A stretch of 64,000 nucleotides of DNA. Origin: an uncultured Actinomycetota bacterium. GTDB lineage: Bacteria > Actinomycetota > Actinomycetes > Propionibacteriales > Nocardioidaceae. Positions 1-8,123 of the stretch are shown here, piece after piece. Each line of letters opens with the position of its first letter. Position 1 is the stretch's first letter. Below the pieces are notes generated by a model. The model was not told the DNA's origin. It searched no databases and saw only the letters and a program-made list of their open reading frames with translations. The translations under genes and the position numbers were made by a program. The stretch covers positions 639,745 to 703,744 of the forward strand of contig CAWCGW010000007.1 of NCBI GenBank assembly GCA_963795215.1, given 5' to 3'.

Positions 1-1821
1 CACCTTCTCCAACGACACGACCGCGGTCGGGTGGGCCCACGCGAGGGCGTGGTCCAGGACGCCGCCGCGTCCGACCGCCGGGAGCTGGTGGCGGTCGCCG
101 ACGAGCGCGACCCGCGCCCGGGCCTCGTCGGCGACCGTCAGGAGCGCGCGGGTGGTGTCCTGGTCCAGCATCCCCGCCTCGTCGACCAGCAGCAGGTCTC
201 CTGGTCGCAGTCGGGCGGCCGGGTTGGGTGTGGCGTCGGGGCGGCGGGCCCAGTGCCCGTCGTCGTCCCAGCGCCAGCCGTGCTGGTGGATCAGCCAGGC
301 GGCCGAGTGCCCGTGGGCGCCGGTCTCCGCGGCGGCGATCTGGGCCGCCTTCAACGTCGGCGTCACCACCACCAACCGGTGTCCCTGCCGTGCCAGCACG
401 GTTTGCGCCGACTTCAGCGCGGTTGTCTTGCCGGCACCGGCCGCGCCCTCTACGACCACCAGCTGGCCGTCACCGGCCAGGGCGCCGACGACGGCGGCTT
501 GAGTGGGGTCGACCCGAGTCAGCCCTCGCCCGTGCAGCCGGGCCCGTCTGGCTGGCTGCTCGGCGCGGCGGGCGACGCGGTGGAGGAGCTCCGCCTCGAC
601 CTCCATCACCTGCTGGGAGGTCAGTGAGCGGATGTGTTCGGGCACGTCGGGTGAGGTGAACAGCCGGACACAGCGTGCGGCGGCGCGGGCCGTGACGTCC
701 TCGGCGAGCTCGATGCGCGCGGCGGGCTCCGCCACCAGGTTGGCCTGCGCCAGCAGGACCTCGACCTTCCCGCGGATGTCGGCGGCGTTCCACGCCGAGC
801 GCTTCGCTCCGAGCTGGGAGATGATCCAGTCGGCCGTTCCGTCTCGGTCGATCCAGGCGACCGGCGTTGCCTCCAGCACGGCGGGGGCGGCCGGGTCGCG
901 GTAGCCCAGGGCGCGTAGCTCGTCGTTCCACCGTGCGACCAAGTCAGCGCCGTCGGTGGGGACGACCTTGTCCGGCCGGGCGTCGGCCCACGCCCGCCGA
1001 TCCCACGCCTCGCGCAGCCGCGGCCCCGGTTCCTCACCGGGATGCTCGCGCCGCCACTCAGCTTCGTACCGGTCGATGTTGCGGTGGATCTGACCGGTTC
1101 GTGCGCTGAACGCCCCGACGTACGGCACGAGCTGCTCGATCTCCGCCGTCACGGGGTCCAGGGTGAAGCCGCGTGCGGCCAGGGTCGCCCGGAACTCCGG
1201 GTCGGTGACGACCGCGGCGTGCCCGATGCCGTTGATCGCCTCGATCATGTCGCGCACACCCACCGAGTGCAGCCCCCGCCACGCGCCCGCCGCCCACACG
1301 CGGGCGTTGACCTGCAGGTGCAGGTGCCGGTGCGGATCGCCGGCCCGCGACGTGTAGTGCCTGATCACGGCTGCCTCGATCTTCTCGACCGATACCTGCA
1401 CCTGTCTTCCTCGCGGACCGACCCGGGTCGTCGCGTGTTGTGCGACCCAGCTGACGATCTCGAAGGCTGCCGTGTCCTGGGCTTCGTCCAGCGCAGCCGA
1501 GATGTCTGGATGAAGCGCGGCGGCCAGTGACCAGGTCTTCGGGCCGTTGACGGTGACCTCGACGAACCGCAACGCGTTCGCGTCTTCGCGAACCCGACCC
1601 TTCTTGCGACCGGTGTCGACGTCGACCCCCGCGACCCACTGCTCGTAGGCGTCTCCGTCCATCGAGCCGGCATGCTCGACACCGCCCGGGGTCGCTGTGA
1701 GCCGGGCAGCCACTCCGCAGCCCTCGCCGAGGTAGTAGTCGTCCGCCCGGGAGCGATCCCTCTCGACGTAGGCGCGCGCGGCCTTCGCCGCGCCGCGGTA
1801 GAACTTCACCCCGCCATGCAC
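1..1821 (-). CDS. MobF (TrwC/TraI-like) relaxase with C-terminal SF1 helicase domain, partial (runs off the left edge)
   Basis: Hand translation of the minus strand from GTG at 1821 gives MHGGVKFYRG...DDYYLGEG (catalytic Tyr pair), RHYTSRAGDPHRHLHLQV (HUH His triad), Walker A GAAGAGKT and Walker B LLVDEAGM. It is open to position 1 and absent from the ORF track because no stop falls in the window. Confidence 0.9.
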   Translation of the reverse strand, partial: MHGGVKFYRGAAKAARAYVERDRSRADDYYLGEGCGVAARLTATPGGVEHAGSMDGDAYEQWVAGVDVDTGRKKGRVREDANALRFVEVTVNGPKTWSLAAALHPDISAALDEAQDTAAFEIVSWVAQHATTRVGPRGRQVQVSVEKIEAAVIRHYTSRAGDPHRHLHLQVNARVWAAGAWRGLHSVGVRDMIEAINGIGHAAVVTDPEFRATLAARGFTLDPVTAEIEQLVPYVGAFSARTGQIHRNIDRYEAEWRREHPGEEPGPRLREAWDRRAWADARPDKVVPTDGADLVARWNDELRALGYRDPAAPAVLEATPVAWIDRDGTADWIISQLGAKRSAWNAADIRGKVEVLLAQANLVAEPAARIELAEDVTARAAARCVRLFTSPDVPEHIRSLTSQQVMEVEAELLHRVARRAEQPARRARLHGRGLTRVDPTQAAVVGALAGDGQLVVVEGAAGAGKTTALKSAQTVLARQGHRLVVVTPTLKAAQIAAAETGAHGHSAAWLIHQHGWRWDDDGHWARRPDATPNPAARLRPGDLLLVDEAGMLDQDTTRALLTVADEARARVALVGDRHQLPAVGRGGVLDHALAWAHPTAVVSLEKV

Positions 1822-1880
1822 CCGGACCACCGCCTCCACGACGTCCGTCGACAACCAACGGACCCCTAGAAATGCCGCGT

Positions 1881-1922: not shown

Positions 1923-2078
1923 CATGCGTGCCGCTTGAGGGGAGCTGTTGAGAAGGCGATGGGCGGTGGAACCTGGGGAGATTCTGGGGACCGATGAGAG
2001 TCGATGATTGTCAGTCAAGTGGAGAGCGGCGGGCCAGGTTGTCGGCAGGGGGGATGGGGTTCGTCAGATACTGAGTCC

Positions 2079-2417
2079 ATGGCCGTCCCGGAGACCGATC
2101 TCGCCCGGATCCGTCGGTTCTGCGAGAAGCAGGTCCCGCCCGAGATGCGGGACCAGGTGCGGGTGGAGCACCGCGTACGTGGTCGCACCGTGACGATCGT
2201 CGAGCATCGGCCGCCGTGGAATCCGGCGCCGGGCCCGGAGTGGACCGACACTCCGCAGGCCCGGATGAAGTACGACGAGCAGACCAAGGGCTGGACCTTG
2301 TACTGGTTCGACCGGAACTCCCGGGCCCATCGCTACGACTTGTTGGAGCCCGACCAGCCGATCGAGCGGCTGCTAGCGGAGTACGGCGAAGACCCGACCT
2401 GCATCTTCAAGGGCTGA
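2079..2417 (+). CDS. DUF3024-like protein
   Basis: MAVPETDLARIRRFCEKQVP...RPPW...ARMKY...WTLYWFDRN...YDLLEP...DPTCIFKG matches the DUF3024 pattern; ATG at 2079 lies within ORF 2004..2417. Confidence 0.75.
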   Translation: MAVPETDLARIRRFCEKQVPPEMRDQVRVEHRVRGRTVTIVEHRPPWNPAPGPEWTDTPQARMKYDEQTKGWTLYWFDRNSRAHRYDLLEPDQPIERLLAEYGEDPTCIFKG

Positions 2418-2777: not shown

Positions 2778-2805
2778 TTGACTTAGTGGATTGAATGACT
2801 AAAAT
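2778..2805 (+). promoter_or_regulatory. Sigma70-type promoter of the XRE/AbiEii operon, probably giving a leaderless transcript
   Basis: TTGACT (2778-2783), 16 nt, TAAAAT (2800-2805); ATG at 2813 lies at the expected +1. A small inverted repeat TTAGT-N10-ACTAA overlaps the spacer. Confidence 0.6.
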
Positions 2806-2812
2806 GAGAAAC

Positions 2813-3274
2813 ATGCCAGCCCCTAGCCCGTACACGAGCCCCGAGCAACAGGCGGACCTCGAACGTCTAGGCGCCCGGCTGCGCGAACGCCGAAAGGCCC
2901 TCGGAGTCACGGTAGTCGCCTGTGCCGAAGCTGCTGGCGTTTCGCGTGTCACCCTGCACAGGATCGAGGCCGGCAACCCCTCGGTCACGATCGGCGCCTA
3001 CATCAACGTTGCAGCCGCACTCGGACTCCACCTCGTCGTCCCGATCCTCGATGCTCCAGCAGCAGAACCGGCGACGATCACGGTCGGCGACTACCCCGGC
3101 CTGCGCACGCTGGCCTGGCAGACCGACGCCGGCACCACCATCACCGAGACAGAGGCACTCAACCTCTACGAACGCGGCTGGCGACACCTCAACCAGGAAG
3201 CCCTCACCGACCACGAGAAGGCGTTCATCCAGCACCTCGCGGACACCTACAGCAACGGGAGGCTCCTTGTTTAG
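2813..3274 (+). CDS. XRE-family HTH protein with C-terminal YPGLRTLAW...LYERGWRH domain; putative antitoxin/regulator
   Basis: LGARLRERRKALGVTVVACAEAAGVSRVTLHRIEAG is an HTH_3/XRE motif; the stop overlaps the start of the downstream nucleotidyltransferase. Confidence 0.8.
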   Translation: MPAPSPYTSPEQQADLERLGARLRERRKALGVTVVACAEAAGVSRVTLHRIEAGNPSVTIGAYINVAAALGLHLVVPILDAPAAEPATITVGDYPGLRTLAWQTDAGTTITETEALNLYERGWRHLNQEALTDHEKAFIQHLADTYSNGRLLV

Positions 3275-3995
3275 GCGGCTGCACCACCAACAGGTGGCCG
3301 AGGTGCTGTCGATGCTCGACGCACCGCTCCTGGCAGAGCACAACTGCTGGTTCGGAGGCGGCACCGCGATAGTCCTCGCCAACGGTGAGTTCCGCGAATC
3401 GGTCGACATCGACTTCCTGGTCTCCGACCCGAAGTCCTACCGCGAGCTGCGCCAGATGGTCAGGGACCACGGGCTCGACGCTCTGGCTACACGCGAACTG
3501 GACCTGGGTCGAACACCCTCTGTCGACGGTTACGGGATCAGGACCTCGGTGCTCGTTGCGGGGATTGCGATCAAGTTCGAGATCATCCATGAAGGTCGCA
3601 TCGACCTCGACACTCCCTCCCCGGACGATGAGATCTGTGGCTTACGGATCCTGACGCGAACAGACCAGGTCGCAACCAAGCTGCTCGCCAATGACGACCG
3701 CTGGGCAGACACGTCGACGTTCAGCCGCGACCTCATCGACCTGGCCATGATGAAACCCGACACCGCCGCCCTGAAGGCCGGCGCGCGCAAGGCGGTCGAT
3801 GCATACGGCAACACGGTTGGCGAGAGCCTCAACAAAGCAGTCACCTACCTCCGAGATCGCCCGCAACGTCTCGACGAATACCTCCGAGCACTCAAGATCG
3901 ACGTGCCCCGAGCAGCTGTCTGGCAGAGCATCCGCGACTTGTCCGCAAGGTGCGCGAAGATCGAAGGTCTGGGTCGGGGGCTCGGACTAGCCTGA
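3267..3995 (+). CDS. AbiEii/AbiGii-family nucleotidyltransferase (type IV TA toxin-like)
   Basis: Motifs FGGGTAI, FRESVDIDF, KLLA, SRDLID. TTG start at 3267 follows GGAGG and overlaps the upstream stop by 8 nt. Confidence 0.85.
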   Translation: MFRRLHHQQVAEVLSMLDAPLLAEHNCWFGGGTAIVLANGEFRESVDIDFLVSDPKSYRELRQMVRDHGLDALATRELDLGRTPSVDGYGIRTSVLVAGIAIKFEIIHEGRIDLDTPSPDDEICGLRILTRTDQVATKLLANDDRWADTSTFSRDLIDLAMMKPDTAALKAGARKAVDAYGNTVGESLNKAVTYLRDRPQRLDEYLRALKIDVPRAAVWQSIRDLSARCAKIEGLGRGLGLA

Positions 3996-4005
3996 CCGTC
4001 CTGCG

Positions 4006-4093
4006 GTCCGCAAACAGTCCGCAAGAAGTCACGCGGAGCCCGTTTCTGACCAACGGCTGCCAACGACTCGCTGACGGCGTTTGCCCAGGTCAG
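4006..4093. repeat. Short repeats next to the element end (candidate integrase arm-type or accessory-factor sites)
   Basis: Direct repeat GTCCGCAA at 4006-4013 and 4017-4024; inverted pair CTGACC (4046-4051) / GGTCAG (4088-4093). Confidence 0.4.
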
Positions 4094-4151
4094 AGGCCCT
4101 TTTCCGGCTGTTTTCAACGATGATCGAAGGTAGCCGAAACACCCGGTTTTC

Positions 4152-4170
4152 GTTCCGCTTCAACGTCTGA
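4152..4170 (+). repeat. att core: 19-bp copy of the 3' end of ychF (GTTCCGCTTCAACGTCTGA = ...F-R-F-N-V-stop)
   Basis: Actinobacterial YchF ends in DGDVVEFRFNV*. The sequence reads TTC CGC TTC AAC GTC TGA in an intergenic position with no upstream ychF coding sequence. Confidence 0.75.
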
Positions 4171-4183
4171 GGGTCGCCGTGTC

Positions 4184-5212
4184 TCAGCCGACCAGGACGA
4201 TCTTCCCGAAGTGCTGGGAGCGGGCCAGGTGCTTCAGGCCGGTGGCGACCTCGGCGACGGGGAGGACGGTGTCGATCTGCGGCGTGATGCCGTGCTGGTC
4301 GATGAAGGCGACCAGCTCCTCGAGCATCTGGCGTGAGCCCGTCTCGATGCCGTGCAGCGTGATGTTCTTGGACATGAACTCGCCGACCGTGATCCGGGCG
4401 TCGAGCAGCCCCTCCATCACGCCGACGAAGCTGATCTGGCCGTTGACCTTGACCGCGTCCAGCGACACGTTGAGGTTGGCGGCGCCGACGGTCTCGAGCA
4501 CGAGGTCCGCTCCGCGGCCGCCGGTGATCTCGCGGGTTCGCCCCGCGACGTCTTCCTCGCGGTAGTTGATGGTGGCGGTGGCACCCAGTCTGGTGACGCG
4601 CGAGAGCTTCTCGTCGCTACTGGAGGTGATGATGGTCCGCAAGCCACGGGCGTGGGCGATCTGCAGGGCGAGCAACGCGACGCCGCCGGTGCCGTGGATC
4701 AGCACCCAGTCGGCGGGGGAGGAGCGTGGGCGCTGAAGAGCGTGCCACGCGGTGACCCCCGCGATCGGCAGGGTGGCGGCGGCCTCGTCGCTCAATGACT
4801 CCGGGGCCGATGCGGCGGACTGTTCGTCGATGATCACGAAGTCGGCCAGCATCCCGGCATTGACGGGGCCGCCGATCGGCAGCCGCTTGAACTCGGCGAC
4901 CAGCTCGCCCTCGCGCCAGAACGGCAGGAAGTTCGGCATGACCCGGTCGCCGACGTGGAACCGGGTGACTCCCGTCCCTGTCGCGACCACCCGGCCGACG
5001 GCATCGGAGATCGGCACGACGTCGGAGTCCGGCTTCCACCCGCCGACGCCATTGATGATCAGCAGGTCGCGATAGTTCAGTGAACGGGCCGTGATGCGGA
5101 CCAGGATCTCGGTGTCGCCGGGCGTCGGGGTCGCCACGGTGGATTCACGGAGGTTGTCGATGCCGTCGCCTCGGGTGGTCATCGTGCTCATCGTCGCGGG
5201 GTGGGAGGGCAT
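4184..5212 (-). CDS. NAD(P)-dependent MDR-family oxidoreductase (zinc-type alcohol dehydrogenase/quinone reductase-like)
   Basis: SLNYRDLLI, HGTGGVA nucleotide-binding region, HFGKIVL; RBS AGGAG before ATG 5212. Confidence 0.85.
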   Translation of the reverse strand: MPSHPATMSTMTTRGDGIDNLRESTVATPTPGDTEILVRITARSLNYRDLLIINGVGGWKPDSDVVPISDAVGRVVATGTGVTRFHVGDRVMPNFLPFWREGELVAEFKRLPIGGPVNAGMLADFVIIDEQSAASAPESLSDEAAATLPIAGVTAWHALQRPRSSPADWVLIHGTGGVALLALQIAHARGLRTIITSSSDEKLSRVTRLGATATINYREEDVAGRTREITGGRGADLVLETVGAANLNVSLDAVKVNGQISFVGVMEGLLDARITVGEFMSKNITLHGIETGSRQMLEELVAFIDQHGITPQIDTVLPVAEVATGLKHLARSQHFGKIVLVG

Positions 5213-5321
5213 GTCAGGCTCCTGTTCGGGAGAGCGTCGGCCGCGTACGACTTCGATGCTAGGCACGGAATCTCATCACGACTAGTTACCGTTGAGGGAC
5301 CGGACGCATTAGTGTTGATGA

Positions 5322-6221
5322 ATGATTGATCCCGTTGCTCTGCGCATCCTGGTGGCGGTGCATGACACCGGATCGGTCAGGGGCGCGGCTGACCTGCTGG
5401 GGTACACCTCGCCCAACGTCACCCAGCACCTGCGCAAGCTCGAGCGGCGACTGGGCGGGCCGATGGTGGAGCGCGCCGGACGCGGGCTCGTCATGACACC
5501 GAGGGGCGTGAGCCTCGTCGAACGCGCTCGACCGCTGATCGACGGCCTCGAGCAGCTGGACCTCACGTCCACCTCCGAAGTCCTCTCCGGGGTGGTGCGG
5601 ATCGCCGCGTTCCCGACGGCCTTGCGAGGTCTGCTGCTGCCCGCGATGGCCGCGATGGATGAGGTGCATCCCGAACTGTCCATCGTTCCGATCGAGTCCG
5701 ACCCCGCAGGTGCCCTCGACGCGCTCGGCGTCGGCCGCCTCGACGCCGTCATCTCCAAGAGCTGGGGAACCACCGAGCCGGCCACGGGCGCACGCCGACC
5801 GCTGACGAGGATCGAGCTCGGCCGGGACCGCCTCGATGCCGTGGTGCCCGCGGGGCACCCCCTCGCCGATCGCCACGAGGTCGGTCTCCGAGACCTGGCC
5901 ACCGAGCGGTGGGCCATCACGCCTCCGGACGACCCGTTCGGAACATGGATCTCGGCTCACGCCCCGGCCCTGCTCGACCCCATCATCAACGCCTTCCACG
6001 CCGTCGAGTTCCAGTCGTTGATCCGGTTCGCCGAGACGGGCCTTGCCGTCACGGTTGTTCCGCGGCTTGGTCGTGGTGCGCTGCCGGACACCGTGGTCGC
6101 CGTTCCGTTGAACGACGCGGACGCCTTTCGCGCCATCCACCTCTACGTCCGACCGATGGCCGCCCGCTCGCGGTTGACCGAGATGATCGTCGAGCGGTTC
6201 AGGAAGGATCTGGCGACCTGA
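5322..6221 (+). CDS. LysR-family transcriptional regulator
   Basis: N-terminal HTH GSVRGAADLLGYTSPNVTQHLRKLE plus substrate-binding domain; divergent from the MDR gene. Confidence 0.9.
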   Translation: MIDPVALRILVAVHDTGSVRGAADLLGYTSPNVTQHLRKLERRLGGPMVERAGRGLVMTPRGVSLVERARPLIDGLEQLDLTSTSEVLSGVVRIAAFPTALRGLLLPAMAAMDEVHPELSIVPIESDPAGALDALGVGRLDAVISKSWGTTEPATGARRPLTRIELGRDRLDAVVPAGHPLADRHEVGLRDLATERWAITPPDDPFGTWISAHAPALLDPIINAFHAVEFQSLIRFAETGLAVTVVPRLGRGALPDTVVAVPLNDADAFRAIHLYVRPMAARSRLTEMIVERFRKDLAT

Positions 6222-6224
6222 CCC

Positions 6225-6479
6225 TCACGGACCCGCTGCCCCCCGTGGCCGGCAAGGAAGGCGTGCACGCCGCGACGGACGACTCGATCCGTAGGACCCG
6301 CTGGGTGACCCAGTCCAGGTCCCCCTTGCTGTGGCCGTTGCGGTTCTCGCTGGTGCCGCGCTGGTCCAGAACGCCACCTGGCCGGTCCGCGGGTCGATCA
6401 GCCATCGGTGCTCCTCATCGGTCTGATCCGCGAGCGCGGTCGCGATCTCCTCGATGTCGAACACGTCCAGGTCGAGCAT
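6225..6479 (-). pseudogene. Truncated UPF0158-like gene: about 40 N-terminal codons joined to unrelated sequence
   Basis: MLDLDVFDIEEIATALADQTDEEHRWLIDPRTGQVAFWTS resembles UPF0158 N-termini; the similarity and codon pattern break near 6360. Confidence 0.45.
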
Positions 6480-6674
6480 TCACTCAGGGGAGAGCCGAGG
6501 CAGGCGTCCAGAAGCGCTGCTCGCCTGACGTCAGGGCTGGCGCCCTGCTAGCGGAAGGACGCGCTCAGCGGCGTAGCGACCGGGGGTGCTGGACCGGGGA
6601 GCCGGTCGCTGGGCGTGCGCCCGGCAGCACGGATTCTGGTAGAAACGAGACGCGTCGGCAGTGGAGGTGACGAG

Positions 6675-8123
6675 GTGACCAGCGGCCCTGGAGGGCACAC
6701 GGTCTTGGCGATGGCCGAGGGTGAGGCGTTCGGCTCGCTCCGGAAGCGACCGACGTCTCGGCTGGAACGATTCGCCCTTGGCCGAGCGCTGCGCAAGCAG
6801 GTGCCCCGCAAGGCCTTGGGGGGATGGGAGGCATCGGCTGGCCGGCGGGACCCAGTCCAGCTGATCCAGGCATCGCATCGGGGACGAGTGGACGAACTGA
6901 TCCCGATCCGAGTCAGCCGGATGGTCAGCTCGCCGTACGGCTTCCTTCGCGGGACCGCCATCGTGATGGCCGAGGACGTCGCCGGGTTGCCGGCGACGGG
7001 GATCACTCCGGTGATCTGCGGCGACGCGCACCTCGGGAACTTCGGTTTCTACGCATCGCCCGAGGGTGAGCTCGTGATCGATCTCAATGACTTCGACGAG
7101 GCACATCCGGGGTGCTGGGAGTGGGATCTTCGGCGACTCGTCGCCAGCATCTGGGTGGCCGGGCGTGAGAACTCCTCCAGCGAGCAGCAGTGCTCGGATG
7201 CTGTCACGTCGTGCGTGTCGGCCTATCGGGCGGAGGTGAACTTCTTGGCAGAACAGCCTCTGCTCATGCGTTCCTACAATCGGCTGGACGTGAAGCGCCT
7301 GCACGAGACCGCCACCGAGAAGACGCTCCGGGCCGAGATCGGACGGTCTGCCAAGCGGGCCCGAAACAGGACAAGCGATCGCGCGCTACCGCGCTTCACC
7401 CGCGAGCACGAGGGACGTCGGCACATCGTGGACGAGCCGCCTCTGATCACCCACGTCCCGGAGCAGGACGGTGAACTGATCGCGGCCGCGCTGGATGAGT
7501 ATCTGACCACCCTGGCTCCGCACTGGCGGCGGGTGCTGGGCGGCTACACCTTGGTGGACATGGCTCACAAGGTCGTCGGCGTCGGCAGCGTCGGCTTGCG
7601 TGCCTACGTGGCGCTGCTCGAGGGCAGCAGCCCTGAGGACGTCTTGTTCCTCCAGCTGAAACAGGCGCGTCGATCAGTGCTGGCCGAGCATGTGCACGGC
7701 GAGTCGGCCTGGCACGCTCACCAGGGCCAGCGAGTGGTGGAGTACCAGCAGGCCCTGCAGACAGTGAGTGATCCACTCCTGGGGTGGACCACCGTTGACG
7801 AGCGACAGTATTACGTTCGGCAGTTCCGGAACATGAAGGGCACCATCCCGCTCGACGCCATCGATCCCGCGGCGCTGGCTGACTACGCCGGCATCGTCGG
7901 ACACCTGTTGGCCAAGGGCCACGCCCGCACTAGCGGCGCTTCCATGATCGCGGGGTATGCCGGCCGCTCTGAGAAGCTGGACCGCGCGATGGCTCGATTC
8001 GCTCGGGCGTACGCGGACCAAACCGAAGCCGACCACGCCGAGCTGGTCCGGGCGGTCCGGAGGGGAGCGGTGCCGGTCACGGAGGGCGCTCTGGATCGCG
8101 CCGGCTCGGCCTTCCGCCCCTGA
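6675..8123 (+). CDS. DUF2252 family protein
   Basis: RMVSSPYGFLRG, CGDAHLGNFG, DLNDFDEA, KVVGVGSVG, LQLKQA, YYVRQ; GTG 6675 follows GGAGG. Confidence 0.9.
   Translation: MTSGPGGHTVLAMAEGEAFGSLRKRPTSRLERFALGRALRKQVPRKALGGWEASAGRRDPVQLIQASHRGRVDELIPIRVSRMVSSPYGFLRGTAIVMAEDVAGLPATGITPVICGDAHLGNFGFYASPEGELVIDLNDFDEAHPGCWEWDLRRLVASIWVAGRENSSSEQQCSDAVTSCVSAYRAEVNFLAEQPLLMRSYNRLDVKRLHETATEKTLRAEIGRSAKRARNRTSDRALPRFTREHEGRRHIVDEPPLITHVPEQDGELIAAALDEYLTTLAPHWRRVLGGYTLVDMAHKVVGVGSVGLRAYVALLEGSSPEDVLFLQLKQARRSVLAEHVHGESAWHAHQGQRVVEYQQALQTVSDPLLGWTTVDERQYYVRQFRNMKGTIPLDAIDPAALADYAGIVGHLLAKGHARTSGASMIAGYAGRSEKLDRAMARFARAYADQTEADHAELVRAVRRGAVPVTEGALDRAGSAFRP

Follow-up and report, generated by a model that had tools for sequence, protein, structure and literature searches.

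A duplicate of the ychF 3' end as the probable right attachment site of a 16.6-kb integrative mobilizable element in an uncultured member of the Nocardioidaceae

Why should an intergenic segment of an actinobacterial chromosome spell out the last codons of ychF? The segment lies in a stretch of 64 kb (henceforth the window; C7:639745-703744 of a genome of 3.69 Mb in 8 contigs), and a preliminary description, made from the letters alone, proposed that its final 19 bp duplicate the 3' end of ychF and mark the far boundary of a mobile element integrated in that gene. Integrative mobilizable elements (IMEs) with a tyrosine integrase reportedly insert at the 3' end of housekeeping protein genes, and a boundary of this kind would carry with it a definite set of expectations regarding a second copy of the repeat, the integrase and the structure of the attachment sites. 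Here we follow these expectations through the genome and through related genomes.

The core duplicate and its partner at ychF

The 19-mer GTTCCGCTTCAACGTCTGA at the right edge of the segment (Table 1) is single in the window at up to 3 mismatches. A genome-wide fuzzy search (up to 1 mismatch) returned one other copy only, the near-identical GTTCCGCTTCAACGTGTGA at C7:627338-627356, which corresponds to window positions -12407 to -12389. The two copies are on the same strand, agree at 18 of 19 positions and are 16,558 bp apart, and the left one consists of the last five codons and the stop of ychF. Walking the frame back from this core gave an intact ORF of 371 aa, whose product matched the Pfam domains MMR_HSR1 and YchF-GTPase_C (the latter over its full length, 1-84/84) and terminates in DGDVVEFRFNV, in agreement with the VEFRFNV ending that had been predicted. 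The sole mismatch (GTG versus GTC) falls in the last Val codon of ychF and is synonymous, and exact identity between the cores extends over 15 bp (GTTCCGCTTCAACGT, window 4152-4166). The claimed duplicate is thus borne out by a second copy that is the end of an intact ychF, located to the left on the plus strand as had been anticipated.

Beyond its shortness, nothing suggests that the repeat arose by chance or by slippage from a conserved coding tail, with no recombination at all. Shuffles predict 0.01 matches per window, the repeat brackets the integrase, xis-like and relaxase genes, and dozens of genomes show the same arrangement; the shuffle expectation, the outcome of the genome-wide search and the pattern of an 80-locus family (see below) led us to reject this explanation, to which we attach a negligible probability.

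The same-genus genomes that are free of the element (G016, G012, G001, G008, G013, G011) have no such intergenic sequence after ychF: past the stop their sequence is unrelated and without arms, and their ychF ends mostly in GTCTGA or GTCTAG. Elsewhere, the sequence of 4006-4170 turns up only in other genera, where it marks the distal end of related elements that carry an integrase. On this evidence we read 4152-4170 as the attR core of one integrated ychF-targeting IME and 3996-4170 as its attR junction (P arm plus core), the element of 16.56 kb having been placed by a tyrosine integrase in the 3' end of ychF; we give each of these statements a probability of about 0.9.

To the right of the core the host DNA begins with a gene for a Zn-dependent alcohol dehydrogenase, whose stop is 13 bp past the ychF-type stop and which is convergent with ychF in the reconstructed empty site. 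The next 4 kb contain LysR and DUF2252 genes and no mobility genes. Since no orthologue of the dehydrogenase was found in 30 relatives at E <= 1e-60, an empty site could not be defined by synteny; the closest ychF among the relatives is 88% identical to the present one (18 same-genus genomes, all at or below this value), and the empty site is our inferred reconstruction from sequence. The GC content of the right flank is also lowered (0.66-0.69 at 4171-8000). The region adjoining ychF may be generally variable.

Table 1. Features of the element and of its right flank. Positions refer to the window unless preceded by L001 or C7; window position = L001 position - 15745.
Feature	Position	Strand	Basis or remark
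shikimate-dehydrogenase-like	L001 3914-4948	-	Pfam scan
RpiB	L001 4973-5569	+	Pfam scan
solute-binding protein and two sugar ABC permeases	L001 6016-9232	+	Pfam scan
LacI regulator	L001 9272-10339	+	Pfam scan
GH32	L001 10362-11369	+	Pfam scan
beta-helix protein with inulin-fructotransferase repeat	L001 11384-12724	+	Pfam scan (PF18835)
tyrosine integrase, int	L001 13014-14135 = C7:637013-638134	-	Phage_integrase PF00589, 3e-22
76-aa HTH_17 excisionase-type (Xis-like) protein	L001 14194-14424	-	HTH_17, 2e-11
MobF/TrwC relaxase-helicase, 900 aa	L001 14897-17599	-	Pfam TrwC 1e-52, AAA_30 4e-44
DUF3024, element accessory gene	2004..2417 = L001 17749-18162	+	PF11225, 1e-30
XRE-type HTH, presumed AbiEii antitoxin partner	2795..3274 = L001 18540-19019	+	HTH_31, 4e-12
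AbiEii nucleotidyltransferase toxin, longest ORF	2922..3995 (L001 to 19740)	+	PF08843, 8e-19, residues 139-312 of the long ORF
third GTCCGCAA copy	3941..3948	+	within the 3' end of the AbiEii ORF; possible distal arm site
rest of non-coding P arm	3996..4151	+	conserved blocks CCAACGAC, CAACGATGA; A3 alignment
GTCCGCAA pair, P arm	4006..4024	+	putative arm-type integrase sites; position, conservation, covariation
conserved 17-18-nt box GCGTTTGCCCAGGTCAGA, consensus GCGTTTnCnCAGGTCAg	4077..4094	+	contains GGTCAG
attR core	4152..4170	+	duplicate of last 5 ychF codons and stop; partner attL core C7:627338-627356
Zn-dependent alcohol dehydrogenase, host flank	4184..5266	-	Pfam ADH_zinc_N, ADH_N

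Gene content and class of the element

From left to right, the element consists of ychF with the attL core, a P' arm of about 110 bp, a cargo slot of 9.5 kb, int, the xis-like HTH_17 gene, the MobF relaxase gene, the DUF3024 gene, the XRE-AbiEii pair, the P arm and the attR core, after which host DNA resumes. The integrase, the Xis-like gene and the relaxase therefore all lie between the cores, as had been expected of a MobF element reaching leftwards from 4170. The integrase had further been expected to follow ychF directly; it is indeed left of the window, but 9.66 kb of cargo separate it from attL. The relaxase gene straddles the window edge, with its 5' two-thirds at window 1-1854 (minus strand) and the remainder reaching window -848.

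Direct repeats at an intact target gene are thus accompanied by a protein of the R..HxxR..H/W..Y type encoded between them: aligned to the Tn1549 integrase (PDB 6emy), R193, H298-x-x-R301, H324 and Y334 of the present protein are in place. The int, xis and relaxase ORFs are uninterrupted. AbiEii is the final gene of the element before the P arm, and its true start is probably near 3267. Its presumed partner here is an XRE-type HTH gene and not the canonical AbiEi, and the equivalent position in Oryzobacter is occupied by an HTH-nucleotidyltransferase gene. The cargo to the left of the window (C7:627913-636723, L001 3914-12724) resembles a fructan/difructose-anhydride utilisation unit. The interval has a GC content of about 0.65-0.67, with most values in the range 0.60-0.69, whereas the contig and the genome are at 0.727. 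The lowest island value (0.60) is that of the beta-helix gene; the relaxase gene is the exception, at 0.70-0.76.

A Pfam scan of the island ORFs over about 100 aa detected no VirB4, T4CP or FtsK-like protein. Given that a relaxase is present and transfer machinery is absent, we classify the element as an IME. Genome-wide, no coupling protein of the TraG-D_C type (PF12696) was found, so that no mobilisation helper is evident in the host, and the TrwC gene of the element is the only one in the genome.

Three other classes were considered and rejected. A prophage is contradicted by the lack of capsid, terminase and tail genes among the island ORFs in the Pfam scan and by a best phage integrase match of 31% identity (the nearest plasmid MobF relaxases are at 43%). 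An actinomycete integrative and conjugative element (AICE) of the pSAM2/SLP1 type would have an FtsK/SpoIIIE-like Tra translocase and a Rep protein; the island ORFs contain neither domain and leave no unassigned stretch long enough for one. A self-transmissible ICE of the T4SS type was discarded because the Pfam scan of the island ORFs showed neither a VirB4 ATPase nor a type IV coupling protein.

Attachment-site arms and strand exchange

A short-word BLAST comparison of the left junction with the island returned three motifs common to both junctions, namely the core, a 22-nt pair GTCCGCA-n-ACAGTCCGCAAGAA (21/22 identical) and CAGGTCAGAGG. Their order is core-box-repeats on the left and repeats-box-core on the right, a permutation explained by attL being B-O-P' and attR being P-O-B', with the same protein-binding words in both arms of attP. 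In the P arm, GTCCGCAA forms a tandem pair (4006-4013 and 4017-4024) with a period of 11 bp, a spacing equal to one helical turn; in the P' arm the pair lies 44 bp past the ychF stop, and it is invariant in the attR and attL alignments of 6-12 elements.

These direct repeats had been pointed out beforehand together with a CTGACC/GGTCAG inverted pair, and only the repeats hold up as described. Both hexamers are present (4047-4052 and 4088-4093), but the attR alignment shows no conservation of the CTGACC half among related elements, and given this we treat the inverted pair as one that probably arose by chance.

The strongest evidence at hand for the repeats as arm-type integrase sites is the covariation of the arm word with the integrase clade. 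Three clades have three words (GTCCGCAA, TGCCCTCA and GTTCGTCA), and each clade has its own word as a pair with 11-bp spacing in the P as well as the P' arm. TGCCCTCA pairs are found in both arms in G005 and G009, and GTTCGTCA pairs in Pseudonocardia (integrases 56-58% identical to the present one), with both arms so equipped in Pseudonocardia sp. RS010 (58%). We consider the GTCCGCAA pairs probable arm-type Int binding sites.

The box that includes GGTCAG occurs in five same-strand copies in the element: the P arm and the P' arm have one each, and the other three lie in the interval from the relaxase stop to the xis start. Relatives have the box at these three locations as well. The trio (GCGTTTnCnCAGGTCA, 17 nt; L001 14589-14899, window -1156 to -846) is spaced by 160 and 137 bp and is found at the equivalent place in the close relatives L022, L023, L024, L026, L039 and L041. 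Copies were located with the pattern GTTYNNNCAGGTCA, as GYNCAGGTCA proved too strict and missed sites; a generic repeat finder applied to the island gave mostly noise in this GC-rich DNA, its one meaningful result being D7 (two box copies). From this distribution we infer that the box binds the Xis-like protein or another architectural factor, and the trio may be the operator of the int-xis operon or a part of oriT.

Outside these motifs, an alignment of attR regions from Oryzobacter, Georgenia, Agrococcus and a MAG (A3) revealed a P arm conserved across genera as GGTCCGCAAACAGTCCGCAAGAAGTC ... CCAACGAC ... GCGTTTGCGCAGGTCAGA ... TCGTTCCGCTTCAACGT, and the P' arm is likewise conserved in the attL regions of different genera (A4). 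Beyond TGA in attR, or before GTTCC in attL, the sequence becomes host-specific. In A4 the elements differ in the stretch between TGAATCG and CGCAGGTCAG: some have GCGTTTG, others its rough complement CGTAAAAC / GCAAAAC. The difference may reflect the inversion of a short segment or the existence of two box alleles.

The junctions also indicate on which side of the mismatch the strands were exchanged. The copy of the core that belongs to the element is preceded by TCG (GGA in ychF) and followed by TGAATCG, the latter being kept on the element side in many hosts in the attR and attL alignments. The attR ends in GTCTGA, the commonest native ychF ending in the genus, and attL has GTGTGAATCG, which agrees with the element side in other hosts. 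Since the attR ending is native-like and that of attL element-like, strand exchange took place to the left of the mismatch, and judging from these endings the crossover must fall inside the 15 bp of exact identity (4152-4166). By the same comparison, the resident ychF now owes its final Val codon and its stop to the element. That a tyrosine integrase regenerates its target gene is a textbook principle; here the element brings its own ychF tail, so that integration restores ychF and leaves the protein unchanged.

A mechanism can be proposed on these grounds. The N-terminal domain of Int would be arm-binding and would bridge the GTCCGCAA pairs of both arms to core sites whose overlap would lie inside GTTCCGCTTCAACGT. 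The Xis-like HTH_17 protein would act as directionality factor, perhaps via the GCGTTTnCnCAGGTCAg box, so as to excise the element as a circle, and could also occupy the box copies upstream of its own gene. The MobF relaxase would nick an oriT, and the strand would exit via a transfer apparatus borrowed from another element, as this one encodes none. Excision would be expected to produce an attP junction of the form ...CCCGGTTTTCGTTCCGCTTCAACGT(G/C)TGAATCGACG... and an attB junction of the form ...GTGGAGTTCCGCTTCAACGT(G/C)TGAGGGTCGCCG...

Related elements and their significance

A scan for related integrases, with one genome per species, gave 80 loci (58-97% identity) in genera that include Janibacter, Nocardioides, Georgenia, Ornithinimicrobium, Oryzobacter, Nostocoides, Terrabacter, Aeromicrobium, Rathayibacter, Micromonospora, Pseudonocardia and Saccharopolyspora. 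The ychF 15-mer GTTCCGNTTCAACGT was present at 58 of the 80, every time on the strand opposite to int (convergent); in 56 of these 58 a copy was located 3' of int at a distance of 25 bp to 8 kb, and 13 loci had a second copy on the other side of int. To judge from these loci, the 3' end of ychF is a recurrent integration hot spot in Actinomycetota, used by a coherent integrase family.

Int and the core are 25-270 bp apart for most integrases of 58-69% identity and 0.5-8 kb apart for most of those at 76-97%, and the space between the P' arm and int is filled in relatives by unrelated cargo. In Janibacter melonis (L024 14133-17821, integrase 94% identical) it holds an OLD-family ATPase/TOPRIM gene with a UvrD helicase gene (a Gabija-like defence pair) and an IrrE-HTH gene, and in Oryzobacter terrae an aminotransferase gene. 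The element is homologous to a minimal relative (L027) over about 110 bp from the core towards the interior, after which the homology ends.

Several loci bear traces of repeated insertion or decay. The same P' arm is found downstream of ychF in G006 and G014, and at the latter locus a matching P arm 11.7 kb off, with a degenerate attR core and no integrase, marks a remnant. In G005 a 56% identical integrase ends about 40 bp past ychF, with a second core 5.4 kb further on. The ychF locus of G009 (L017 560-2500, C3) is, as its sequence reads, a case of tandem accretion: a first insertion of 1.7 kb turns the ychF tail into VEFRFSN-stop, a longer duplicate of the tail (GDVVEFRFNV-stop) then precedes a second element with its own integrase, of the type seen in G005, and a further integrase fragment lies 6 kb on. 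In Aeromicrobium sp. Leaf350 (L058 16270-16440) the core is preceded by element-type sequence instead of ychF and followed by a P' arm, an attP-like hybrid junction that suggests two tandem elements. The integrase of G021 has an in-frame stop.

Two successive insertions in G009, the hybrid junction in L058 and the integrase-less remnant in G014 would all suit a composite origin, in which a backbone of about 7 kb (int to attR) adjoins the remains of a second ychF-targeting element or of an unrelated island (the 9.5-kb sugar cluster) whose internal att site was lost, 4152-4170 still being the attR; so would the distinct GC of the beta-helix gene and the unusual remoteness of int from attL. We nevertheless think this quite unlikely. 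No third copy of the core was found on the contig at up to 3 mismatches (genome-wide fuzzy search and short-word BLAST of the island), the GTCCGCA pair was not found between the cargo and int, and the relatives with integrases of 76-97% identity also carry 0.5-8 kb of cargo in this slot. As the cargo of these relatives is unrelated and sits at the same place, the slot looks like the regular cargo position of the family, and a single IME with its cargo remains the reading that we prefer.

This IME might also be a fixed relic that no longer excises or transfers in its host even though its sites and genes look intact, a situation that the genome without a TraG-D_C-type coupling protein or another relaxase, the remnant in G014 and the interrupted integrase gene of G021 would fit. 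We hold it to be unlikely though conceivable, given the uninterrupted int, xis and relaxase ORFs, the intact catalytic residues of Int, cores that still agree at 18/19 positions with 15 exact, and integrases 88-97% identical in many genera, which argue for recent mobility of the family.

A sister clade appears to have changed its target. In G003 (L019 12425-12545) and on contig C6 of G014 (L020 14249-14369), integrases 61-62% identical to the present one and associated with the same arm words adjoin a gene that ends in EKREPDWSPYPWYY and a stop, which we take to be MenB-like. The same P' layout follows that gene (TGAGTCG..GCGTTTnCGCAGGTCAG..GTCCGCAAAAAGTCCGCAAGAA), and its tail GTACCCCTGGTACTACTGA shares 12 of 19 positions with the ychF core, so that the clade looks as if it had been retargeted through a look-alike core. 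A second menB-like tail, as attR, was not found within about 10 kb upstream of int in G003 or on C6 of G014.

Streptococcal IMEs and ICEs of the ICESt3 type target fda, rpsI, rpmG and guaA. Like the streptococcal IMEs, the present element duplicates the 3' end of its target gene in direct repeats so that the gene stays intact, and it has an int-xis module and a relaxase without mating apparatus; its family likewise has variable cargo and shows tandem accretion. Unlike the streptococcal IMEs, the present element resides in Actinomycetota, targets ychF, has a MobF/TrwC relaxase with a fused helicase, and carries int far from attL with the cargo slot between the P' arm and int. Attachment sites of the lambda type, with arm-type, core-type and Xis sites, are those of phage lambda, mycobacteriophage L5 and the Streptomyces AICE pSAM2. 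The element has several traits in common with these systems: its integrase carries a predicted arm-binding domain at the N terminus, short words recur in both arms at some distance from the core, the core is short and identical to the host target, and a small HTH protein, the predicted directionality factor, is encoded beside int. Here, however, the target is the end of a protein gene and not a tRNA gene, the putative arm words and the 17-18-nt box are specific to the family, and in contrast to AICEs there are no FtsK-like Tra or Rep genes. The nearest solved structure is that of the Tn1549/Tn916-family integrase, in which the catalytic domain aligns with R, HxxR, H and Y conserved; the match is partial (E 4e-11), and target choice is relaxed in Tn1549 but strictly site-specific in the present family.

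As an integration landmark, ychF is also known from pneumococcal prophages and satellites integrated upstream of it (PMC10383233, PMC6375853) and from pipolins with large serine recombinases (PMC11551731). These belong to another phylum and use another recombinase class (serine, or other tyrosine integrases), and the pneumococcal satellite lies upstream of ychF whereas the present element lies at its 3' end. In the searchable literature we found ychF as a landmark only for these elements and came across no account of an actinobacterial tyrosine integrase directed to the ychF tail.

The boundary call is thus sound, the biology ordinary and the family-level picture moderately interesting. With the exact limits of the 16.6-kb acquired segment fixed, it becomes clear which genes are foreign, namely the fructan/difructose-anhydride-type utilisation cluster, the AbiE-type toxin-antitoxin pair and the relaxase. 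The attP grammar (core, arm words, box) is readable, which helps to annotate islands in Nocardioides, Janibacter, Georgenia and related genomes, and the integrase, if active, is a possible site-specific integration tool for high-GC actinobacteria.

At somewhat less than even odds, we tentatively propose that the loci represent a large actinobacterial IME family for which we found no literature description. It would comprise an integrase clade targeting the last 15-19 bp of ychF, a sister clade retargeted to a menB-like gene with the same arm words, and a compact relaxase-xis-int backbone of the MobF type. Two cargo slots, one flanked by the P' arm and int and the other by the relaxase gene and the P arm (here with the toxin-antitoxin pair), would move metabolic operons and defence systems between genera. 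If this is true, integrases 88-97% identical across genera of different actinobacterial families would mean a very recent, broad-host-range spread, and the box common to both att arms and to the xis promoter region would couple excision to autoregulation.
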